DNA from: a virus
Lineage: Duplodnaviria > Heunggongvirae > Uroviricota > Caudoviricetes
Strand: one strand, 5' to 3'
Virus record (IMG/VR): IMGVR_UViG_2698536647_000011
Span: 1 to 27,882 of that record
Length of the DNA stretch: 27,882 nucleotides
The position numbers were made by a program, and so were the translations under genes. Under the pieces are notes generated by a model. That model made no database searches. It was not told where the DNA came from and was given only the letters and a program-made list of their open reading frames with translations. This document shows, piece by piece, positions 1,687 to 26,238 of the stretch. Position 1 is the first letter of the stretch, and every line of letters begins with the position of its first letter.

Positions 1687-3259
1687 CTTGCTCCTCCTCG
1701 TTTGATTTTTTCACTCCGGCCTCAAAAGCTGCAGCGGCCCATGCCGGTGGTTTCAGACCCGCAGCACGACGCTCCATGGTTTCCCGGACCTGCTGGGCAA
1801 AAATCTCCTGATAATCATCACCGCGTTTGGCGCACTCTTTTTCATACGTGCTGAGACCTGCCTCAATGAGCATGACGGCCTCCTGTACCTCTTTCAGCCC
1901 GTCAATTGCCATTCGACCAGAGCCAATCCAGTTGGCATTCCCCCAGGCTGTTCTCGCCTCCTGGAAACTGAACCGGGCTTTCGAAGGAAGCGTGACCACG
2001 CGGCGGACAATCGCCTCTTCAAGCCAGCAAAGAAACATCTGACAGGCCTGTCGGGATGCCACAAACTTGCGACGCCCCATAAAGTACGCCCAGGACTCGT
2101 TAGCACTTGCGCGTGCGGTCGAGTAGCTCATCTGCGAATAGTTTCGCGAAAGCTGCTCATACGACACACCAAGCCCAGCGGCAATATAACGCAGCAGGGA
2201 CTGTTCAAAAGTCGAGTAGCCGTTATCGGTATCCTGCGCCGACTGAAGGTTGAGAGAATCACCCGGCAACAGGTGTGGAACCCTTGCCCCACCCAGGCGA
2301 ACAGGCGCAGCTGAGTAATAGGACGCCATTTCACCGAGCCAGCCCGTAAGTTTGCTCTGCTGCTCTTTATTATCCGCGCCGAGAATAAAGTCCATCGCCG
2401 ATTGGGTATCCAGTTCACTCTCGATGGTAGCGGCATACATAGCCTTCACTATCGCGCTCTGGAGCTGGGTATTTTGCAGGGTATCGAGCATTTTCATCTG
2501 CTCCATCACGCTGTAAAACGCATTGGCCCCACGGGTCTGTCCATCCTCCATCGGTTCGAATACATGGATAAATGAAGGTCGACCGCCGGGTAGTTCGCGA
2601 GGAATGTAGGTCCAGTTCTGCGCCATCCAGCCGGGATAACCATCGTCGCTGACGTAATATCCCAGCGCAGCACCGCTATCATTTATTTTCACACCGGCGC
2701 GACAGTTCCGGGTATCACCGATATTATTCGGATTGCTGACGCGCTTCGGACTGACCATTTTGAACTGAGTACGGAAAAGACGCGTTGAATCGCTGTCCCA
2801 GGTCGCCTGCGTGCATAATTCACCGTTAAACGCGTGCATGGCCACACCTTCTCGGATCATCATCGTAAACGTTCGCTTACGCTCGGCATCAATCCCGCAA
2901 AAGTCGTCCTCGGCATACTCATTCCATGCAGCTTCCACATCCCGCGAGAATGCCCGTGAATCCTCCTCATTTATTCCCAGATAACGCCAGCTTGGTCGAT
3001 AACTGAGTCTGAAAAATGACCCGACGATGTGGTCCTGGTGGAGCTGCACGGCGTTTGCCGCGTAGCCATTATTTCGCACCAGATCGTCAGCGCGGGCATT
3101 TCCGCGAGAATAGTTGGGTAGGAGTGCGGCATCTGCACTTTCACTCGGCGGATTCCAGCCTCGCAGCTGCCCACCAAACCCGCCTCCACCGCCATGATAT
3201 CCTGCGTATTCCCGAAGGGATGTTTTCCCGTCAGGTCCCACCAAAGATGGTATTTTCAT
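1667..3259 (-). CDS. B: Portal protein (lambda gpB-like)
   Basis: 530 aa; ...[27 protein letters not shown]... and the long C-terminal half match lambda gpB closely from memory. Confidence 0.95.
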
Positions 3260-3462
3260 ACGTAAAACCCTGCTGGCCCCCGGCGTCGTGATGTGGTGCC
3301 AACCTGAGATTCAAGGTCAGCAATATATTTTTTGAGATCGCTGACTGAAGTGGCTGTAAATTCCACTCTTCGACCGTCTTTCTGTACCGTCGCCACGCGC
3401 TTTCCCATCATCAGGTCATGTAACGCAGCGCGCGCGGCATCCAGTTCAGTCTGTGTTGCCAT
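3256..3462 (-). CDS. W: Head-tail joining protein W (lambda gpW-like)
   Basis: 68 aa; ...[43 protein letters not shown]...[10 protein letters not shown] matches lambda gpW; start overlaps terminase stop (TAATG). Confidence 0.9.
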
Positions 3463-5384
3463 TATTCATCTCCAGATAATGCCCGCGCGTAATCCGCCAG
3501 GGTCTTGTTATTGTTACGGCTGCCTTCTTCCTCCAGCAGGCTGGCCAGAAGTGAATCAAGATTTAGCTGCCAGCGGGATATGCTTATACGCAGCGCCGCC
3601 AGTGCATAAACAAAGCAATCGAGCGCCTCATTTCGTCGTTTTTTGCTGTCCCATACGATCTTTTTCTTTCCGTCTACCCATTTTTCCACCTGCTCTTCAG
3701 CTGTTAGTTGTTGGGCCTCTGTTAGATCGTAGATTTCTGGGTTATTCGGGAAATGAACCGCTCCCGCCAGCGGCTCGTCTCTTTGCGCCACCAGCGTGAA
3801 ACGGTTATAAATCTGCTCTTTTGCGGTGTCTGTTCCTACCTCTGTGAGGTAAACACCATTCTTGTTACGCTTGCGTGGCATGTTCGCCACTGGCTTTCCA
3901 TAAACCGACGCCCCCTTTATAGGGATCACACGAAACAGACCGTGTTTTTTTGAGCGGTTGTAGACGATGGTGGGATCAATGCCGCCAATATCCCAGCAAG
4001 TGCGGGATATAACCATTTCGAGACCGTTCTGGCGCTTATACGTCCTGTTGATCGCTTCATCAACTCGAGCGAGAGTCGACTCATCATCATGACGACCCAT
4101 AATGATAATTTTGTCGATAAGCCAGCTTTCCTCTCCCGGCCCCCATCCCCAAACACGCATTTCGTAACGGTCAAGCTGGGAGTCAATACCCGCTGTCAGA
4201 TATGCCACTCGCTCCGGCACAGACGCTTCAAAGTGCTCTTTTCGTTCCGCTAAAACTTCAGCATCGGGTCGTTCACCTATTTTCGGTTCCCACGTTTCGC
4301 CCAGGGTCGTGTTAACGAAAGTTTTTCGCTTACCCGTATCACCTTTTGTTTTTATCCAGTCCTTGACGATCTGCACCCAGGTTGTGAACGGGCTATATGC
4401 GGTCCAGATGTGGAATGTAACGCTGTCAGGAGGTTCAATTTCGGTACCGGATGAAGAAAACCAGTTAAGGCCGTCTCGTGTCCAGATACCTGTTTCATCA
4501 CAAATATACCTGGCCTCCAGAAATTCCAGCTCCTGTTGTTTAATCACACAGGCATTGTGTTCACAGAGGTAGTAAACGCTGGCAGGTTCTCCCGGAGACC
4601 ATTTGAAGCCAAATGGTGTCTCTTTATCACCGAATTTCAGATACTGCTCTTCCCCACAGTGTGGGCATGGAACATGGAACCGAAGAAAATGTTCAGACTC
4701 CTTAGCAGCTCTTTCTATCTGGCACGTACCTTTGACTTTCGGTGTAGATCCGCGAATGGATTTCGGCCATACAGAACCCTCAATACGCTTATCACCCAGA
4801 AAGGTGGGAGAACCTTCTTTCTCGATGTCATCATCGAAAGCGGCGAGCTCGTCGTAGCCAGCCACATCAACTGATTTTTCACGGTAGTTTTTTGCAGCCT
4901 TACCGCCCAGGCACCAGAAACCACGACCATTCGAGAAACGCTTCATGCTCAGCGTATTGTCCCGGTGTTTTTTACCGTACCAGGGAGCAAGCGCCAGCAA
5001 CGTCGGAATATCACGAATGGTCGGTTCTACATGAGACTTCATGAAGTTTTCAGCATCACCGTCGGTTGGTAACCATATTAGGGAGTTACGCTGTTTATGT
5101 TGGATGAAATATGCGTAAACGCCGAGCAACATTTTTGAGTAGCCGACACGAGCCGATTTAACGACATTCACCTCGCGAATATAGTCATTACCCATCGCAT
5201 TCATAATTGCACGCTGAAATGGCAGTGTTTCCCAGCGCCCTTCCTGGTAGGCAGACTCTTTCGGGAGATAATAATTCTCATCTGCCCATTCAACTGCTGT
5301 TTGCGGTTGCGGCCGGTACAGCGAACGTAACCCCGCCCGCGCAGAGTGCTGCAGCCCCTTAACCTGACTGTTCGATATATTCAC
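3462..5384 (-). CDS. A: Terminase large subunit (lambda gpA-like)
   Basis: 640 aa, lambda gpA length and position between Nu1 and W; 5' end overlaps Nu1 3' end as in lambda. Confidence 0.95.
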
Positions 5385-10745: not shown

Positions 10746-10880
10746 TTATTTTTGCCTACTAACGACTGCATCCATCTCAAGGCGAACATCCAGCATTGAC
10801 AGACACCCCTCAATAAACCCTTCAGCAAGCAGCATTTCTATGCGTATCTGCTTTTCGCTTTTCTTCCGGTGCTTCGCCAT
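10746..10880 (-). pseudogene. Possible 3' remnant of a second Q-family antiterminator gene (44-codon ORF)
   Basis: ...KQIRIEMLLAEGFIEGCLSMLDVRLEMD... parallels the C-terminal segment of the intact Q upstream (ISTIRREVKQIINASLFCL) and what I recall of QuuD-type C-termini; no good RBS. Confidence 0.25.
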
Positions 10881-10940
10881 CTGCCGTTTTGAATACCGTA
10901 GAATATAATGCCCAACCAACAAATGATTGTCTGCGGCCGA

Positions 10941-10966
10941 AATAAAAAAGCCCGAGACAAGCGGGC
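10941..10966 (-). terminator. Intrinsic terminator (candidate late-operon terminator, second of a tandem pair)
   Basis: On - strand GCCCG-CTTGTCT-CGGGC followed by TTTTTTATTT. Confidence 0.55.
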
Positions 10967-11040
10967 AATATGGGGGTAAGGCAATGCCGGCTCGTTGGCC
11001 GAAGGGTCCCAGGCAGTGGGTTCTGTGTGCGGCGTACCGC

Positions 11041-11070
11041 AAATAAAAAAGCCCCGCACGATGGCGAGGC
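11041..11070 (-). terminator. Intrinsic terminator immediately downstream of Q (first of a tandem pair)
   Basis: On - strand GCCTCGC-CATCGT-GCGGGGC followed by TTTTTTATTT; shares the AAATAAAAAAGCCC core with the 10941 terminator. Confidence 0.55.
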
Positions 11071-11151
11071 TTGGCATTCATTCATGTCACACACAACAAC
11101 GGCAACATATACGATTTATTCTGCTCATTTGTTCATTGAAAAGCAAGCTCG

Positions 11152-11634
11152 TTATGAGGATTTTTTTGCAATTTTCCTCACATTTTCGCGATTGTTAAAC
11201 GCATTTTGCAGCGGTTGGTACAAGCAGAACAGTGAGGCATTGATGATTTGCTTCACCTCTCTACGGATTGTCGAGATGCTTGGGTGTTTATACTGATTTC
11301 CGCCACGCGTCTTCATCAGGCGAGGCTTACTTACTGCATGCTGCCATGATGCAATTCGGATCTCGCTGGAGTTACAAACGTAGTAGGCGAAGACAACCCG
11401 CCAGGCATTTTCATCCACATTCTTCAGATAGTGACGAATGACAGCATCAATGAGCATCCCGTCATCATCACTACATACCGGTCGTGATGCTTGCTGGGGC
11501 TCAACGGTAGCCATGAATCTGGCAATCATGTTGATCATCGCTTTATCAATCTTGCCGGTCTGGCACCATGCGCCCCACAACTGGAGCCACTGGTCTACCC
11601 ATTGATGCTGGTCGTTGGTTAATTCCAGTTTCAT
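11152..11634 (-). CDS. Q: Late-gene antiterminator Q (Q21/QuuD-type family, not lambda-Q type)
   Basis: 160 aa; position between nin genes and lysis cassette; ...WLQLWGAWCQ... and ...SRPVCSDDDGM... resemble what I recall of E. coli QuuD (ERWGAW..., SRPQCCDDDGM); RBS AAGGAAG. Confidence 0.7.
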   Translation of the reverse strand: MKLELTNDQHQWVDQWLQLWGAWCQTGKIDKAMINMIARFMATVEPQQASRPVCSDDDGMLIDAVIRHYLKNVDENAWRVVFAYYVCNSSEIRIASWQHAVSKPRLMKTRGGNQYKHPSISTIRREVKQIINASLFCLYQPLQNAFNNRENVRKIAKKSS

Positions 11635-12554: not shown

Positions 12555-13009
12555 CAGTCCTCCTGCTTATCGCGCAGCTGCTGGTACTCGCAGCTCTGCG
12601 GGATGGTCAGGTGGCAGCCGATATTCATCGCCCAGGCTTCGACTTTGCACAGGAATATGTACATCTCGCCGGTTTCCAGCTCCGACGTATGGCGGAGGGA
12701 TTGTACGGTAGTGACCTCCCCGGACACGACGTCTACCCGGTCTTTGCTTTCGTAGCCGAGATAGGTGTGCTTCATCGCGTCTTTGACCCACTCAGGCGTA
12801 GCGAAGGTCTTACCGCGGGCGATGAGGTACTCGCTGATTTCCGTGTACCACATGTGGCTGAGCGCGTTCTGCGACAAGCTGCGCTTCTCGCGCCACGGCT
12901 TAACCTGCAGGCGGAAGCATTGCCCGGCGTCCAGCAATGGCTGAATCTGCTGGCCGATGGCCGCGAAGTTGCCGCGATGGAGCTTGATGCCGTCTACTGG
13001 AAGAGTCAT
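12554..13009 (-). CDS. ninB: NinB-like recombination protein
   Basis: 151 aa; ...REKRSLSQNALSHMWYTEIS... parallels lambda NinB ...ERNRSLDQNRKLWACLGDVS...; AGGAGG RBS; nin-region position. Confidence 0.7.
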   Translation of the reverse strand: MTLPVDGIKLHRGNFAAIGQQIQPLLDAGQCFRLQVKPWREKRSLSQNALSHMWYTEISEYLIARGKTFATPEWVKDAMKHTYLGYESKDRVDVVSGEVTTVQSLRHTSELETGEMYIFLCKVEAWAMNIGCHLTIPQSCEYQQLRDKQED

Positions 13010-13805: not shown

Positions 13806-14060
13806 TTATTTTGCATTTTGCTCAGTCATTTCAATGTAGCGAGGATCAGATGCCTTAGGCAATGCAACGCTCTGCTCGCGATAGTGCCGCACGCGATCCA
13901 TGAAATACTCTCGTAGATGCTCTGGTTGCTCACGAGCTACCTGCTCGGCGATAACTGGCATGTTTAGGCGTTCTTTGTACGCCACACCAGAAGCAGCAAG
14001 GTCAACGTTCACCTTGTCCTGTTCTTCTTTTGATTTTGCTGCGATGTTATGGCTAGACAT
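13806..14060 (-). CDS. Hypothetical protein (84 aa)
   Basis: ORF with GAGGGGG RBS; charged, helical-looking sequence. Confidence 0.45.
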
Positions 14061-14100
14061 GATGAATCCCCCTCAATGCTTTGAGAAGGATTATACAAAG

Positions 14101-14126
14101 AAAAACCGCCGAAGCGGTTTTGTAGT
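14101..14126 (-). terminator. Bidirectional intrinsic terminator
   Basis: AAAAACCGC-CGAA-GCGGTTTTGTAGTTTT; on - strand ACCGC-UUCG-GCGGU with U-run. Confidence 0.55.
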
Positions 14127-14152
14127 TTTCAAATATTCATCTCAATATCTGG

Positions 14153-14389
14153 CTAGTTGATATCAAATGCCAGTGGATTTGGGCGAACAGCGTTTATTTG
14201 TCCAATGGCCCATTGATGATTGTAGGCGGTTCCTACAGGTAGAAGATACCCGTAAGTACCATCTTTAAGCGTCACATGCATACACAAATGGTCTCCACCA
14301 TCTATATCGTAAATTGAGCCTTGAGGAATAAATTCCTCAGTTTTAATCAGTGTTATGCCGTTATTGCGTGGAAATATATAGTGATGCAT
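14153..14389 (-). CDS. Hypothetical protein (78 aa), AT-rich
   Basis: ATG at 14389 with GGAG RBS; low GC relative to neighbours. Confidence 0.4.
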   Translation of the reverse strand: MHHYIFPRNNGITLIKTEEFIPQGSIYDIDGGDHLCMHVTLKDGTYGYLLPVGTAYNHQWAIGQINAVRPNPLAFDIN

Positions 14390-14488
14390 TTTATAGCTCC
14401 TTTGTCGATTGGAGCCCAATTATATCAAGTTTAAATCTACGTCATTGAAGTAGCAGGATTTGTTACGTCCTGCCCTGAAACTCAGACT

Positions 14489-14716
14489 CTAAGCCGCTAT
14501 TTGTTTCGATTGGCATAGTTCCGGCAAATTAGCACGCACCAGCGCTTCAGCGAACGGCGGTGGCACCGCGTTACCGCAGCGGGCAACCTGTTTATCCTTC
14601 GCGTACTTCTTGCCCCGGTAGTCCTGGTCGATGATGTACCACTCTGGGAAGCCCTGCGCGCGGTATAGCTCGTGTGCAGGCGATCGAGTGATACAGGACC
14701 GTGCGCCGGGTGATTG
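14489..14716 (-). pseudogene. C-terminal remnant of a C5-cytosine DNA methyltransferase (last about 72 codons, no start)
   Basis: Hand translation in the frame not reported by the ORF track: ...ITRSPAHELYRAQGFPEWYIIDQDYRGKKYAKDKQVARCGNAVPPPFAEALVRANLPELCQSKQIAA*, carrying the conserved C-terminal motifs of C5-MTases (GFP...GNAVPPP); in-frame stop immediately upstream. Confidence 0.55.
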
Positions 14717-14740
14717 TTAGTTGTCATGGGTTAGTCCTCC

Positions 14741-15049
14741 TTAATCCCATTGCAAAACTGATGCGAAATATGCACCGCGACACGGCGTGTCACGAGGATG
14801 ATGCCAGCCTGAATACCCATCCTGACCACCAATTGGGCTAACTTTGTACCAGCACTGGTAATAGCGGGCGCTACTTGCAAAATCAGCCGCACCATCCGGG
14901 TCGATTACATCTTGTGACACAGAAGCCTGAATTATTTCCGCTTCCGTATAATCGCCGCGCATAACAATAAATCGCGCATCGTCCGAGCAAAGATAATCAC
15001 ATGAGCCGTCATGTTTACCTTTGGTGGTAGGTTTGATTAATTTATCCAT
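14741..15049 (-). CDS. Hypothetical protein (102 aa)
   Basis: ORF in co-directional early-right gene string; no family recognised. Confidence 0.5.
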   Translation of the reverse strand: MDKLIKPTTKGKHDGSCDYLCSDDARFIVMRGDYTEAEIIQASVSQDVIDPDGAADFASSARYYQCWYKVSPIGGQDGYSGWHHPRDTPCRGAYFASVLQWD

Positions 15050-15050
15050 C

Positions 15051-15422
15051 TCACTCCCCCTTCACGCCAATGCCAGCGGTGGCCGCTTCATGCGGGTGCT
15101 TTGCGTCCCATTCTTTCATGTACTCCTCAATTTCCCACGCCGTTTCACCGATAGTGCAAAGACCATCAATCACACGTTGGCGCTCCTCCGCTAAATTCTT
15201 CTGCTCCCGAGCCTCCAGTTCAGCAATCCGCTCCTCATACCGAGCGCCAACGGAAACGGCTTTATGGAAGGCTTCGCACCATTTGGACGATTGCGCCTGC
15301 ATCTTCTCCAGCTCATCCAGCAGCTCCAGCACGTCGCGAGTGGGAACCATGAAGTTCGGAATGAAGTTATCTTTCGCTTTCTCTGCTGTTAGGCGCAGCG
15401 CCTGTTTGTCGATGTTGCTCAT
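15051..15422 (-). CDS. Hypothetical coiled-coil protein (123 aa)
   Basis: ORF tightly packed with neighbours; Glu/Lys/Arg-rich helical sequence. Confidence 0.5.
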   Translation of the reverse strand: MSNIDKQALRLTAEKAKDNFIPNFMVPTRDVLELLDELEKMQAQSSKWCEAFHKAVSVGARYEERIAELEAREQKNLAEERQRVIDGLCTIGETAWEIEEYMKEWDAKHPHEAATAGIGVKGE

Positions 15423-16119: not shown

Positions 16120-16460
16120 ACCCCTTCCCTCCCCCAAACCATCAAAATTCGCTTCATCGCCGCGCTGTTGCGGCACTCCTGGCAGATCACGTTTGCCTCT
16201 GTACGCTGCACCAGCTTCGAATTTCCCTTCGGCATAGCCGGGATTGTTTCTGGTGCGTATTTCATGCCGTAATCGGTCAGCCGATAAAGCCGCTGTCCGT
16301 GCTTGCCTTCGAACTCGATCAAGCCGTCTGCCAGCAGCGTGCTCACCGTTCCGGATATCTTTTTGGTGGTCATGCCGATCATGCTGGCAATACGAGCACT
16401 GTTCAGGCCCGGGTTGTTACGCAGGGCTGCAAGAATCTGCCCGCGGATTGTTATGGTCAT
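16116..16460 (-). CDS. Winged-helix DNA-binding protein (114 aa)
   Basis: MarR/wHTH-like pattern (...ARIASMIGMTTKKISGTVSTLLADGLIEFEGKHGQRLYRLT...). Confidence 0.5.
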   Translation of the reverse strand: MTITIRGQILAALRNNPGLNSARIASMIGMTTKKISGTVSTLLADGLIEFEGKHGQRLYRLTDYGMKYAPETIPAMPKGNSKLVQRTEANVICQECRNSAAMKRILMVWGREGV

Positions 16461-17311
16461 GCTGCCCCCTTAGAACGGTAAGAATCCCACGTGAATGACA
16501 GAGTGCACCCGCCGCCATCGCTCATGCGGTCAAGAACGCGCTCGCCGATGAATGCTGCCAGCTCTTCCCTTGTCTGGTTGCTGATCAGGATGGTCGGCTT
16601 CATACGCTCATAACGGGTGTTGATGATTTCGAACATGATCAGCTTCTCGGCCTCGCTGCCGAACTGGACGCCAACTTCGTCGATGATCAAAAGGTCCGGA
16701 GTGGTGAAGTGCGCAATCACGTCGTTCTCGCAGCGCTTCGCTGTTTTCGACCACGTTGATTTGAATTCGCGGGCAATCTTCAGCGCGGTGGTGAAAATTA
16801 CCGGGCTCTGGTGGTTCTCGATGACATAACGGGCGATCGCCAGGGCGAGGTGGTTTTTACCGGTTCCCGGCTTGCCGCACATCACCAGGCCACCACCCTG
16901 CTTCAGGCGCTCTGGCCACTTCGCGGCATACGCCTGGCAAACCCGCAGCGCGCGCTCTGACTCCTTCCCCACCGGCTGATAGCTTTCCAGCGTGCACGTT
17001 ACAAAGCGCTCAGGGATTTCGAGCTGGCGCAGCAGGCGATCGATGTTCTGCTGGCGCGTGCGGTCTTCCCACCGCTTTTTCTCGTCATACAGGAAGGTCA
17101 GCTCATCGCGAAGGCAGCCAGGACAACGAGTCGGCGGTGACGGCAGCTTGATCAGGCTGCTGGTAAGCACGCGTTTACGCTGTTCGTACTCGCCATGTTT
17201 CTCGCAAAGCACTGTTTCGAAGACGGTCTCGCAGTTAGGGAGCTGCTCTGGAGGTCTACCAAGGACTTCCAGCATTTTTTCGATAGCGTCGATTTTTTCG
17301 AGCAGTTCCAT
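16457..17311 (-). CDS. DnaC-like helicase loader (AAA+ ATPase, IstB/DnaC family)
   Basis: Walker A GKPGTGKNHLA and Walker B LLIIDEVG; ATG at 17311 with GAGGGA RBS (ORF-track start at 17329 is TTG). Confidence 0.85.
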   Translation of the reverse strand: MELLEKIDAIEKMLEVLGRPPEQLPNCETVFETVLCEKHGEYEQRKRVLTSSLIKLPSPPTRCPGCLRDELTFLYDEKKRWEDRTRQQNIDRLLRQLEIPERFVTCTLESYQPVGKESERALRVCQAYAAKWPERLKQGGGLVMCGKPGTGKNHLALAIARYVIENHQSPVIFTTALKIAREFKSTWSKTAKRCENDVIAHFTTPDLLIIDEVGVQFGSEAEKLIMFEIINTRYERMKPTILISNQTREELAAFIGERVLDRMSDGGGCTLSFTWDSYRSKGAA

Positions 17312-17313
17312 AC

Positions 17314-18183
17314 TCAGTCCCTCGCCCAAGATGGAATTTCAGTCTGGCCATAGTCCTTGCCAGCGAAGTTCTCAGATACGCGAGACTGATTGCGGGCTGG
17401 CTGCTTGATGCCTTTCGGCTCAAACAATCCCTGCCAGCCGTTCGCAATGCTCTGGTTGATGATTTCTTCAGGCTGATATCCGCTGCACTTGCAACGCTCG
17501 AGCAGGTTGATGGCCTGGGTAACCGTCTGCTGAGACTTGATCGGTTTCTTCAGGTCGCGACGATAATCGACCCATGACTTCCAGACTGAAACTGACAGCC
17601 ATTCAGGAAGGTCAACACCAGCCGGATCGAACGAAGCCGGTTTGGGGGATTTAGGGGGTTTATTAATATTGTCTTTATTGTCTTTTGTAATAGTGTCTTT
17701 TGTGTGTCCCCATTTTGGTGACAGGGTTGTCACTGTTTTGGTGACACTTTTTGTCACCACCGTAGGGACACTGTCACTACCATGGTGACAGTCACTACTA
17801 TGGTGACATTTTGGCGCAGGCTTAGTGCCCGGAATTACCCACTCACTCAGGTTTTTGTTGGGCCCGATCAGCATGCCGTCGGACACCAAAACATTCATCG
17901 CAATGAGTTCGTTTTTGGCAGCGTTAACCTTCTGGCGAGGTAGCCTGGTCAGCTCAGAAAGTTGTGAGTCTGCTATGCGGTCCATCTTTTTGTTGAACCC
18001 ATAGGTTTTGCGGCAAACAGCATGAGCTACCTTGGCCTGATTTTTGGTCAGGTTCGCGCCGATAAGCTCCTCATACAACTCGTTTGCCAGACGGGTGTAC
18101 CCATCGTCTGTATCGGCCACGCGTTGCTCCTGTATTCCCGAAACTACAGCGGGAAAGTTGAGAATTTCTGCGGTGTTTGACAT
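17314..18183 (-). CDS. O: Replication initiator protein O-like
   Basis: MSNTAEILNFP...DDGYTRLANELYEEL...LTKNQAKVAHAVCRKTYGFNKKMDRIADSQLSELT... parallels lambda O N-terminal domain; internal iteron origin. Confidence 0.85.
   Translation of the reverse strand: MSNTAEILNFPAVVSGIQEQRVADTDDGYTRLANELYEELIGANLTKNQAKVAHAVCRKTYGFNKKMDRIADSQLSELTRLPRQKVNAAKNELIAMNVLVSDGMLIGPNKNLSEWVIPGTKPAPKCHHSSDCHHGSDSVPTVVTKSVTKTVTTLSPKWGHTKDTITKDNKDNINKPPKSPKPASFDPAGVDLPEWLSVSVWKSWVDYRRDLKKPIKSQQTVTQAINLLERCKCSGYQPEEIINQSIANGWQGLFEPKGIKQPARNQSRVSENFAGKDYGQTEIPSWARD
17657..17815. repeat. Origin of replication: AT-rich tract plus at least four or five GGTGACA...TGTCAC iterons, inside the O gene
   Basis: Read directly: ...TTATTAATATTGTCTTTATTGTCTTTTGTAATAG... 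then GGTGACAGGGTTGTCAC, GGTGACACTTTTTGTCACC, GGGACACTGTCAC, GGTGACAGTCAC, GGTGACA; lambda ori likewise sits within O. Confidence 0.7.
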
Positions 18184-18220
18184 ACTTACTCCCGTTACTT
18201 GGCGTAACACAGTGTGATAA

Positions 18221-22848: not shown

Positions 22849-25800
22849 ATGGAATTTCCATATGTAGTTAAAGCCACGCAAAAGTCGGGAAAGCCTGATG
22901 CTTTTGTCTGGTTCACTGCAAAAACAGAGGCTCGCGCCAATCTGATGCTGGATGTTGCGCTGGAAGATGCAGGTATCGAAACAGGTAGGGGTAAGGACTA
23001 CGCCAAACCGATTCGCACTGATTTCCCAGTTGTCGACGGCCTGCCGAAAGAAGGTGAAGTTGATTTTACCTGGTGTGATCGCTACGAGCTTCAGGACGAT
23101 GGGCGCACCTGGCTGCCAAAAGCCGCTGGTGTGTCTACTGGTTCCGTTGACGCCCCCTACACACCTACTCCGACCGTAATCGTTGAAGATGCGACTGCGT
23201 CCGAAATTGTCCCGGTTGAAATCCGTACTCCAGCGGTCCGCTTTGCCGTCCATCTGATGAACGATAAATACCAAACCCACGTCACTAAAGAGCAGCAGTT
23301 GGCTGCCAGCGAAATGTCACTGGATGAAGGCAATACATATCTCCATAGCCTGCTTGTGGCAAGGAACGATGTGCCCGCGACCGCCAAACTCAGCCTGAAT
23401 GCTGAGTGGAAAATGATTCGGGCGGTTAAGGACATTTTCACACCAGACGAAGAGCACGAACCAAGATTGATCGCTGCATTCATGTCTGACTGGGTGAACA
23501 CGGATGCCGGTGACCGCAATCAACTGATAGAAGACTGGCGCAGTGGTAAGTTGCAGTTGCTCAAAACTGAAACCAGCAGCGGTGCTAACGTTACAACGGG
23601 TCAAGATCTCACTGTTGAGGACGGCATCCAGGCCGACGAGCACGGCCGGGCAGAAGGTGGCGTCGTTGATAGTGAAGTCGATACCGAAGAGCAATCCCAG
23701 CAGATACAGCAACCGAACCTGATCGTTGTTGCCACCCTGCCTTTCCGCCAGCGCGTACTGGCTCAGTTCATCGGTGATGGTGAATATCTCTATCACATCG
23801 ACGCAGGGCAGAAAAATGAGATTGTCCGCCTTGAGATGGACACCGATGACGCGTACGTCCAGAACCTGCTGCTGGCAGCTGAGAATGTGGAAGCATTCAA
23901 AAAAGCCATTGAGCACGATATTCATAAAGTCGTGAATGCCGTTAAGAAAGTCTTCCCTGTCGATGGAAAAATCCCTGAACTCGCAACCTTAATCCAGTTT
24001 TTGAAATTGTGGTTCGCTACAGATCACATCGACCGCGGTATCCTCATTCGCGAATGGGCCGCCGGTAATCGCATCAGTAGTGTGCAGCGTACTGATTCCG
24101 GCACTAATGCCGACGGCGGTTACGTCACTGACCGTGGACCTGACGCACACCACACACTGGACACTCTCGATTTAGAGATTGCGTGTGCCCTTCTGCCTAT
24201 GGACTTCAACCACTTCGAGATCCCGGGCAGCATTCTTCGTCGCGCTAAAGAAATCGTGACCAAAAAAGAAGAACCATGGAAATCATGGAGCAACATCCTG
24301 CGCAATCAGCCAGGCGTTCTGGGTGTTAACCGCACGGCTATTTTTAACCTGGTACGTATCGCACCGGAAAATATTCATTTAACTCCTGTCGCTCACCTGG
24401 AATTTGTTAACCAGACCATGACAGCCGCGTTCAATTCCGCGGTCGAGTTATTGCCGTTGCATGAGGCTGAACCCGCAGCACAGGAAATTCCCCAACCTGA
24501 AGGTAAGGAGTCTCCGCGCAAATCCTTCTGCACTCACGAAGAGAACCTGCAACGCGTGCGTGAAGAAGGAGCACGCCGCCGCGCAGAGGAAGCGGCAGCA
24601 CAACCGCAGAAAGTCGAACAAGAACTGGTTAAAAATGTCGGCAACGGAATATTCGACGTTACGGCTTTGCTGCAGAACTCAGCAACTCATGGCACGAAAA
24701 AGGCTACGGAGACCACCAGCAATGTGCAGGTTCAAGAAACTGTCAGTGATGAAAAACAAGCTGGTGATGAAGTACAGCCAGGCGAAAGCAGTCTGGAGTC
24801 TGGTGAAGAGTCAGATACCAGCCAGAAGGACGATGTAGACCAGAATACGGATTCTGTCGCCAAAAATAGCGATTCTGTAAGCCAAACCGAACCAGTTGCA
24901 GCACAAACCGAGCCAGAAGCGCAATCTGACGAACCAGCTGTTGTTTATCCCGCTTATTTCGAGCCAGGCCGCTATGAAGGGCTGCCAAACGAGGTTTACC
25001 ACGCCGCCAACGGCATCAGCTCAACCCAGGTGAAAGATGCGCGCGTTTCGCTGATGTACTTCAATGCGCGCCACGTAGAGAAAACCATCGTCAAAGAGCG
25101 CTCAGCGGTGCTGGACATGGGCAACTTGGTGCATGCGCTGGCGTTGCAGCCTGAACTACTGGACGCAGAATTCAGCGTTGAACCGGTGATCCCTGAAGGC
25201 GCATTCACAACGGCCGCGACCCTGCGCGCCTTTATCGATGAGCACAATGCCAGCCTGCCGGCGCTGCTGTCTGCCGACGACATCAAGGTGTTACTGGAAG
25301 AGTACAACGCCACCCTGCCGCCGCAGGTTCCGCTTGGCGCTAACCTGGAAGAAACGGCACAGAACTATATGGCGCTGCCAGCTGACTTCCAGCGTATTGA
25401 TGGTGACCAGAAGCAGACGGCGACGGCAATGAAGGCATGCATTAAAGAGTACAACGCCACCCTGCCGCCGCCGGTTAAAACCAGCGGCAGCCGTGACGCG
25501 CTGCTGGAGCAGTTGGCAATCATCAACCCTGACCTTGTGGCTCAGGAAGCACAGAAACCGGCACCACTGAAAGTGTCCGGTACCAAAGCAGACATGATCC
25601 AGGCCGTGAAGGCAGTCAAACCAGATGCCGTATTTGCCGACGAACTGCTGGATGCCTGGCGCGATAACCCGGAAGGAAAAGTGCTGGTCACCCGCCAGCA
25701 GCTGAGCACCGCGCTGAATATTCAAAAAGCGCTTCTGGCACACCCGACCGCCGGCATGCTGCTGACCCACCCTAGCCGAGCCGTTGAGGTGAGCTACTTT

Positions 25801-26238
25801 GGTTTTGACGAGGAGACGGGCTTGGAAGTTCGTGTGCGCCCTGACCTTGAGATCGACCTGGATGGCGTGCGTATAGGTGCAGACCTGAAAACCATCAGCA
25901 TGTGGAATGTTAAGCAGGAAAGCCTGCGCGCCAGGCTACACCGGGAAATTATTGAACGTGATTATCACCTGAGCGCGGCTATGTACTGCGAAACCGCAGC
26001 GCTGGATCAGTTCTTCTGGATTTTCGTCAACAAAGACGAGAACTACCACTGGATCGCCATCATCGAGGCATCCGCTGAACTACTGGAGCTGGGTATGCTC
26101 GAGTACCGCAAAGCGATGCGCAATATCGCAACCGGATTCGACACAGGTGAATGGCCAGCGCCAATCACTGCTGACTACACCGACGAACTGAACGACTTCG
26201 ACCTGCGCCGCCTTGAAGCGCTGCGTACTCAGGCATAA
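22849..26238 (+). CDS. recE: RecE-like exonuclease VIII (1129 aa) with C-terminal PD-(D/E)xK nuclease domain carrying a tandem-repeat insertion
   Basis: N-terminal ...[10 protein letters not shown]...[24 protein letters not shown]... and ...[37 protein letters not shown]..., C-terminal ...[19 protein letters not shown]..., ...[10 protein letters not shown]...IGADLKT... match Rac RecE segments from memory. Confidence 0.85.
   Translation: [1129 protein letters not shown]

Follow-up and report, generated by a model that had tools for sequence, protein, structure and literature searches.

Does the nin region of this prophage hold a cytosine methyltransferase gene, or only the end of one, and, if only the end, does it still do anything? 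The DNA analysed, referred to below as 'the window', is 27,882 nt in all and is a lambdoid prophage of the phi80/HK225/mEp237-like type. A first-pass annotation had proposed that a phage anti-restriction methyltransferase was deleted here down to its 3' end. We find that the last codons of a C5-cytosine DNA methyltransferase (MTase) gene are joined, at a sharp boundary, to the first codons of another gene. The result is very probably a dead and inert deletion scar, as far as function can be read from sequence. In what follows, we describe the scar and its setting, the intact gene from which it comes, other remnants of the same family, and the several ways in which the leftover DNA might yet be useful.

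Genomic setting

The scar sits in the nin region, in the lambda sense, where the first-pass annotation had placed it. Replication protein O and a DnaC-like loader lie upstream, and NinB, NinG and Q lie downstream. Passing along the - strand from the loader to the scar, one meets a winged-helix gene, a DUF4752 gene, an Ead/Ea22-like gene and a 102-aa gene. Past the scar come a 78-aa gene, a homologue of DNA polymerase III theta, NinB, NinG and Q. The other side of the window carries RecE/RecT and a cI-like repressor. The principal landmarks are:

17317-18210, - strand: replication protein O, upstream of the scar
16460-17329, - strand: DnaC/IstB-like loader, upstream of the scar
13806-14060, - strand: DNA polymerase III theta (HolE-like) homologue (PF06440, E 2e-35)
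12557-13009, - strand: NinB, downstream of the scar, with NinG and Q beyond

Two features elsewhere in the window deserve mention in passing. The segment 22710-22807 (- strand), just upstream of the RecE-like gene (22849-26238, + strand), matches the Rfam family of the Hfq-binding sRNA isrB (RF01386) with 38.2 bits (gathering score 35; E 0.0012). And two adjoining ORFs at 10749-11634 (- strand) match the Phage_antitermQ profile (118 positions), the one at 11155-11634 over positions 2-90 and the one at 10749-11081 over positions 67-118. These may represent a split, frameshifted or partly duplicated Q gene.

A methyltransferase gene reduced to its 3' end

The scar is made up of the following elements:

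14674..14740, - strand: 5' fragment of a 108-aa gene (DUF550-type start), comprising the RBS GGAGGA (14740..14735), the ATG (14727..14725) and 18 codons (MTTNNHPAHGPVSLDRLH)
14672..14676: deletion junction, codon 18 of the 108-aa gene (14674) joined to the end of MTase codon 602 (14672)
14489..14674, - strand: C5-cytosine DNA methyltransferase gene remnant, comprising 1-3 nt of codon 602, codons 603-662 and the stop codon TAG (14491..14489)
14497..14727, - strand: chimeric 76-aa ORF, comprising 18 codons of the 108-aa gene and then 58 codons in which the MTase remnant is read in the wrong frame

The MTase frame is open for 75 codons, from TAA (14719..14717) to TAG (14491..14489); by direct translation it reads QSPGARSCITRSPAHELYRAQGFPEWYIIDQDYRGKKYAKDKQVARCGNAVPPPFAEALVRANLPELCQSKQIAA and terminates in ...HELYRAQGFPEWYIIDQDYRGKKYAKDKQVARCGNAVPPPFAEALVRANLPELCQSKQIAA. 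The first-pass annotation had described about 72 codons closed upstream by a stop. The frame is indeed bounded by a stop at both ends, but the length needs correcting, and so does the extent of the homology: the MTase-derived part comprises the last 60-61 codons only (14674/14671..14492), and the first 14 codons are another gene's 5' end, read out of frame.

That this part is the C-terminus of a C5-MTase, as the first-pass annotation had recognized from its motifs, is borne out by several comparisons, among them the tblastn searches with C5-MTases that it had recommended. Window 14671..14492 corresponds to residues 603-662 of the 662-aa MTase of the Escherichia coli H6 prophage (WP_073464677.1), with 59 of 60 residues identical (tblastn, E 3e-33). 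Among phage records, 89 match the remnant by tblastn, the best being the 'C-5 cytosine-specific DNA methylase' of mEp237 (93% identity, E 2e-33). The Pfam profile DNA_methylase (PF00145) is matched over positions 281-320 of 324 (E 1.9e-4), at 21.4 bits, just below the 22-bit cut-off, and residues 603-662 of the H6 enzyme align to the C-terminus (motifs IX and X) of a solved MTase, 3g7u. Motif IX (xELxRxQGFPD/E) is present in the remnant as ELYRAQGFPEWY, and motif X (GNAVxxP) as GNAVPPPFAEAL.

The rest of the enzyme is missing. When the full 662-aa H6 MTase was sought by tblastn in all six frames of the window, the next-best match had an E value of 0.57. There is no trace in these frames of motif I (FxGxG, AdoMet binding; DNFAGGGGAS in the H6 MTase), of motif IV with its catalytic Cys (SPDCRHFS in the H6 MTase), or of motifs VI and VIII, and the target-recognition (variable) region between motifs VIII and IX (H6 residues ~220-595) has no counterpart in the window. 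The catalytic N-terminal motifs are thus absent, as the first-pass annotation had held, and they do not reappear upstream in another frame. Of the features expected of a functional enzyme of the PF00145 family, only motifs IX and X are present. The frame contains no ATG, and a start at the first GTG would give only 25 codons. Lacking AdoMet-binding motif I, catalytic motif IV, a target-recognition domain and an in-frame start, the remnant would be incapable of DNA methylation.

The intact relative and the deletion

The related prophage of E. coli H6 provides the comparison that the first-pass annotation had hoped for: an intact 662-aa MTase at the same locus (L002, the H6 locus, 2196..4184), followed by the window's own 78-aa and DNA polymerase III theta-like genes. 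The order in H6-type nin regions is 108-aa gene, 85-aa gene, 662-aa C5-MTase, promoter, 78-aa gene. The 108-aa gene (L002 1616..1942) thus lies two genes upstream of the MTase, and its first 18 residues (MTTNNHPAHGPVSLDRLH) are those of the ATG-initiated ORF in the window. At the DNA level, window 14674..14740 is 98.5% identical to L002 1603-1669, the start of that gene. The same residues also open a 155-aa DUF550-type ORF in the prophage of E. coli Nissle. The anti-restriction role of the intact enzyme is putative; no partner restriction-enzyme gene is annotated beside it in H6.

Homology breaks sharply at 14674/14672 when window 14100-15100 is compared by megablast with complete E. coli genomes (query 427/429). 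Up to 14674, the window matches the Nissle prophage at 96.6%; from 14672 it matches E. coli H5/H6 with 99% DNA identity over 573 nt, a stretch that includes the promoter and the 78-aa gene, and the H5/H6 feature beneath this match is annotated 'DNA cytosine methyltransferase'. The base between, an A at 14673, has no counterpart in H6. Where the MTase allele has His (CAC), as in mEp237, the two sides of the junction overlap by 1 nt. Microhomology at the junction is therefore at most 1 nt, and since the parental sequences share at most one base there, the joining was by illegitimate recombination.

Further evidence comes from two Logan contigs, L004 and L005, which an exact protein lookup found to encode the identical 76-aa chimeric protein. 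By blastn, L004 matches L002 1-1669 at 99.8% and L002 4001-4488 at 98.8%, with a single base between. It is thus an H6-type genome with a clean 2,331-bp deletion, and confirms that the MTase was deleted down to its 3' end. The remnant can be assigned to a deletion on two grounds: its homology to an intact gene at the same locus, and the collinearity of both flanks with a single relative (L004 with L002). The DNA missing at the junction corresponds to L002 1670-4000. Lost with these ~2.33 kb were the rest of the 108-aa gene, the whole 85-aa gene and, from the MTase, 601-602 codons.

Between the RBS and a point beyond the downstream promoter, junction included, the window, L004 and L005 show no difference. 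Immediately upstream of the RBS, L004 departs from the window, whose flank beyond 14740 is a different module; L005 carries the window's upstream genes. We propose that an H6-type lambdoid prophage lost ~2.33 kb by illegitimate, essentially homology-free recombination, and that recombination probably carried the scar afterwards into two or more distinct upstream settings. The simplest history would be a single deletion, after which recombination gave the scar a new set of upstream neighbours. We considered a two-parent origin, too, in which a Nissle-type DUF550 gene was crossed with an H6-type MTase. The Nissle-like upstream genes of the window speak for it, but L004 makes one deletion within an H6-type genome the simpler account.

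The deletion is probably recent. Six bases, most of them synonymous changes, set the remnant apart from the H6 allele, and five of these lie within ~45 nt of the junction. The near-junction differences match the mEp237 allele (CAC GAG CTA ... GAG), and reflect allelic mosaicism older than the deletion rather than decay since. This particular junction is also rare. It was found in the two Logan contigs only: an exact search for the 28-nt junction pattern gave nothing in IMG/VR, in JGI metagenomes or among GTDB species representatives, and megablast did not find the junction in the complete E. coli genomes of RefSeq.

Other remnants of the same family

Using sensitive blastn, we surveyed 5,426 complete E. 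coli genomes with the whole H6 MTase gene. Matches occur in 65, and 15 of these hold at least 80% of the gene; about 50 of the 65 hold only 3' pieces, as judged among the 50 of 65 matches listed. Among those listed, every partial copy is 3'-terminal and starts at nt 1620, 1821, 1890 or 1918. With the window, at least five junction classes keep the 3' end:

nt ~1620: mEp237 and CUWW10, ~122 codons kept (mEp237 about 122-134)
nt ~1806: the window
nt ~1821: ~35 E. coli genomes, Z22-6 type, 55 codons kept
nt ~1890: MSB1_9D and KMi029, 33 codons kept
nt ~1918: ~22 codons kept

The lengths retained at the 3' end range from 68 to ~370 nt. In the Z22-6-type scar, the MTase 3' end has become attached, out of frame, to the opening 24 codons of a winged-helix gene. 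The corresponding chimeric ORFs (L006 2429-2611 in Z22-6, and L007 2429-2629 of the EC17CM13 type) are annotated 'hypothetical protein', with no PGAP pseudogene flag. Outside E. coli the gene is mostly whole: among the best 80 loci from GTDB species representatives (mostly other Enterobacterales), ~70 are full-length MTase genes. Two of the GTDB loci are of another kind. At L033, residues 1-29 and 526-662 of the MTase are kept, an internal deletion; at L057, residues 1-78 are set ~1 kb apart from the rest, possibly by an insertion.

A second, 63-bp copy of a gene end, the last 21 codons of a third MTase allele, is found in mEp237 (L001 3709-3771) and Z22-6 (L006 3192-3254), ~0.5 kb further downstream than the first remnant. 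After this copy come an intrinsic terminator, a LexA box (TACTGTATAAAAACACAGTA) and dinI. In Klebsiella phage 5 LV-2017, an intact MTase is directly followed by dinI.

The intact genes have features of their own. The 85-aa gene upstream of the H6 MTase (L002 1942-2199) matches only the C-terminal end of phrog_111 (DNA methyltransferase; positions 276-341 of 345), and intact E. coli relatives of the H6 C5-MTase adjoin a 'phage N-6-adenine-methyltransferase'. Taken together, these suggest that the 85-aa gene may itself be the remnant of a second methylase. The variable region of the H6 MTase (L002 2196-4184), as we read it, has a motif resembling P-x-x-T-[VI]-T-A-G-G repeated some five to seven times, and gives overlapping, self-similar tblastn HSPs in distant relatives; the repeats may form a tandem array of target-recognition modules.

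The downstream transcription unit

Directly after the scar comes a unit that is intact (14102-14445, - strand), consisting of a promoter-like site, the 78-aa gene and a hairpin terminator:

14419..14445, - strand: promoter-like site read from the sequence, ATGACG, 15-nt spacer, TATAAT, with extended -10 TGaTATAAT at 14427..14419
14153..14389, - strand: 78-aa gene, function unknown (phrog_30079, E 1.6e-49), the first intact gene after the scar
14102..14121, - strand: terminator-like hairpin from a terminator scan, AAAACCGC TTCG GCGGTTTT, then a T-run

A consensus promoter scan of 13900-15100 returned no sites. It demands a spacer of 16-18 nt and so passes over this one; the 15-nt spacer being beyond the rules of the scan, the promoter call rests on conservation and on the annotation of mEp237. 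In that phage, a promoter is annotated at the homologous place, and the promoter segment, GTAACAAATCCTGCTACTTCAATGACGTAGATT, is identical between alleles whose coding DNA is only ~84% identical. The 78-aa gene follows the MTase in H6, mEp237 and MSB1_9D, and is annotated WP_016247098.1 in H6 and MSB1_9D. Just past the MTase stop codon, GCAGGA-N9-TCCTGC (14473..14453) could form another hairpin. We rejected it as a conserved structure: mEp237 changes the 5' arm (AACATGG) and leaves the 3' arm, TCCTGC, unchanged, without compensation.

Does the scar retain a function?

The scar DNA is probably still transcribed, within the early rightward operon. As the first-pass annotation had noted, an ATG at 14727..14725 with the RBS GGAGGA opens a different frame over the same DNA. 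This frame runs for 76 codons, and its start signals turn out to be those of the 108-aa gene, fused out of frame to the MTase remnant. From the inherited RBS and ATG, ribosomes probably make a nonsense peptide of 76 aa, the junction being out of frame; its 58-residue tail has pI 12 and is rich in Arg, Ser and Thr. One might see in it a newly born gene for a small basic protein instead, given its strong inherited start signals, its position within the early operon, and the occurrence of the identical sequence in two further contigs that differ in their upstream contexts. We think this very improbable. The ORF belongs to no Pfam or PHROG family, and GC-rich coding DNA read in the wrong frame gives just such a composition (14 Arg, 10 Thr, 8 Ser; pI 12). 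The three copies, being identical in DNA, carry no evolutionary signal, and their exact identity more likely reflects recency than constraint; moreover, the analogous Z22-6-type scar yields a different chimeric peptide, also out of frame. The ORF at 14497..14727 arose incidentally with the deletion, and should not enter annotations as a gene of unknown function. That the C-terminal MTase fragment itself is expressed, from an internal start or by frameshifting from the ATG at 14727, and acts, for example, as a dominant-negative or DNA-binding module, is scarcely credible. The MTase frame does run unbroken to its natural stop, and the protein is 98% identical to the intact enzyme, but an unbroken frame is to be expected of a deletion so recent. 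The closed frame offers no start beyond the GTG already described, we see no signal for the frameshift that would be needed to enter it from the ATG frame, and in the architecture of C5-MTases, motifs IX and X by themselves form neither the cofactor pocket nor the catalytic loop.

It could also be the DNA, rather than a protein, that matters, the MTase 3' end being retained for a role in cis: as a regulatory part of the downstream promoter-gene unit, as a terminator or processing signal, or as a 'linker' for the exchange of nin modules. The remnant classes found are all 3' ends, a pattern that might betray selection acting at the gene's end or immediately beyond it. At least five independent junction classes keep the 3' end, mEp237 and Z22-6-type prophages have the second 63-bp gene end upstream of dinI, and the intergenic promoter segment directly downstream is perfectly conserved between diverged alleles. 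Even so, we judge a cis-acting role to be quite improbable. Synonymous sites in the last 60 codons are no more conserved than those of the other codons: third-position identity between the gene of H6 and that of Klebsiella phage 5 LV-2017 is 0.51-0.56 in the former and 0.43-0.70 in the latter, and nothing here suggests a hidden function. The lengths retained vary widely, and two unrelated modules follow the remnants, either the promoter and 78-aa gene, or the terminator, LexA box and dinI. The GCAGGA..TCCTGC hairpin is not kept in the mEp237 allele, and, in a search of the whole window, no Rfam family matches in or near the remnant. Random deletions that stop short, on the right, of a downstream promoter worth keeping give the same picture, and explain the bias toward 3' ends without further assumptions.

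Why the methylase might be lost

McrBC kills cells whose genome becomes methylated (PMC2614495), and it is conceivable that the MTase is lost repeatedly, and directionally, from E. coli lambdoid prophages on account of the harm that m5C does to hosts with methyl-dependent nucleases such as McrBC. In that case, how far each deletion reaches at the 3' end would be set by the promoter-gene unit downstream, which is needed. The counts behind this idea are those of the survey: 15 E. coli genomes with at least 80% of the gene, versus about 50 with a 3' scar only (50 of the 65 matches listed), and intact genes at ~70 of the best 80 loci from species representatives of other bacteria, mostly other Enterobacterales. 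We consider it unlikely, though far from negligible. If true, the scar in the window would be one of at least five independent casualties in a conflict between phage anti-restriction methylases and host Type IV restriction. The E. coli scar counts offer a small, testable lead on selection against phage C5-methylases.

Comparison with known systems

Features of this kind are already known, and the present one is ordinary: gp46 of mEp237, and several PGAP pseudogenes, are annotated as MTase remnants. The locus should be labelled an MTase pseudogene fragment, and no cytosine methyltransferase should be ascribed to the prophage. Beyond correct annotation the scar matters little, and the repeated 3'-only loss of the methylase in E. 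coli prophages is the one lead from it, itself only mildly interesting.

One close relative is the MTase of H5/H6 (WP_073464677.1; 662 aa; PF00145), which shares with the remnant its nin position, its downstream neighbours and its last 60 residues (98% identical). Unlike the window, which has only codons 603-662 and no start codon, it is intact, with motifs I-VIII and the long variable region. Another, among the remnants, is mEp237 gp46 (YP_007111419.1), annotated 'DNA methyltransferase ... similar to C-terminus of putative site-specific DNA methylase'. It, too, is a nin-region 3' remnant of the same MTase family, with the same promoter and 78-aa gene next to it and 93% protein identity in the part that both retain. 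It differs in being an independent truncation (~122-134 codons) of another allele (84% DNA identity), and in having the second 63-bp copy. The pseudogenes labelled by PGAP as 'DNA (cytosine) methyltransferase, incomplete; missing N-terminus' (JMW03_RS26355 in MSB1_9D, WAZ84_RS24730 in KMi029 and ACNHKS_RS09030 in CUWW10), together with the unlabelled Z22-6-type scar, are likewise 3' MTase ends at nin-region junctions; their junctions are at other positions (nt ~1620, ~1821, ~1890 and ~1918, versus ~1806), with other upstream partners.

In the scale of the loss, the window resembles well-documented spontaneous events, the nin5 deletion of lambda and the deletions of Sf6, in which kilobases disappear from the dispensable stretch between the replication genes and Q. 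Sf6, a related phage, tolerates nin-region deletions of 1.2-4 kb, or even favours them, and many of these are linked to IS911 (PMC5630979). The window differs from Sf6 in that no IS is involved, and the junction microhomology is 1 nt or less. What it adds is a clean and fully reconstructable case of a nin mosaic joint, in which a homology-free deletion would have been followed by spread through flanking homology.
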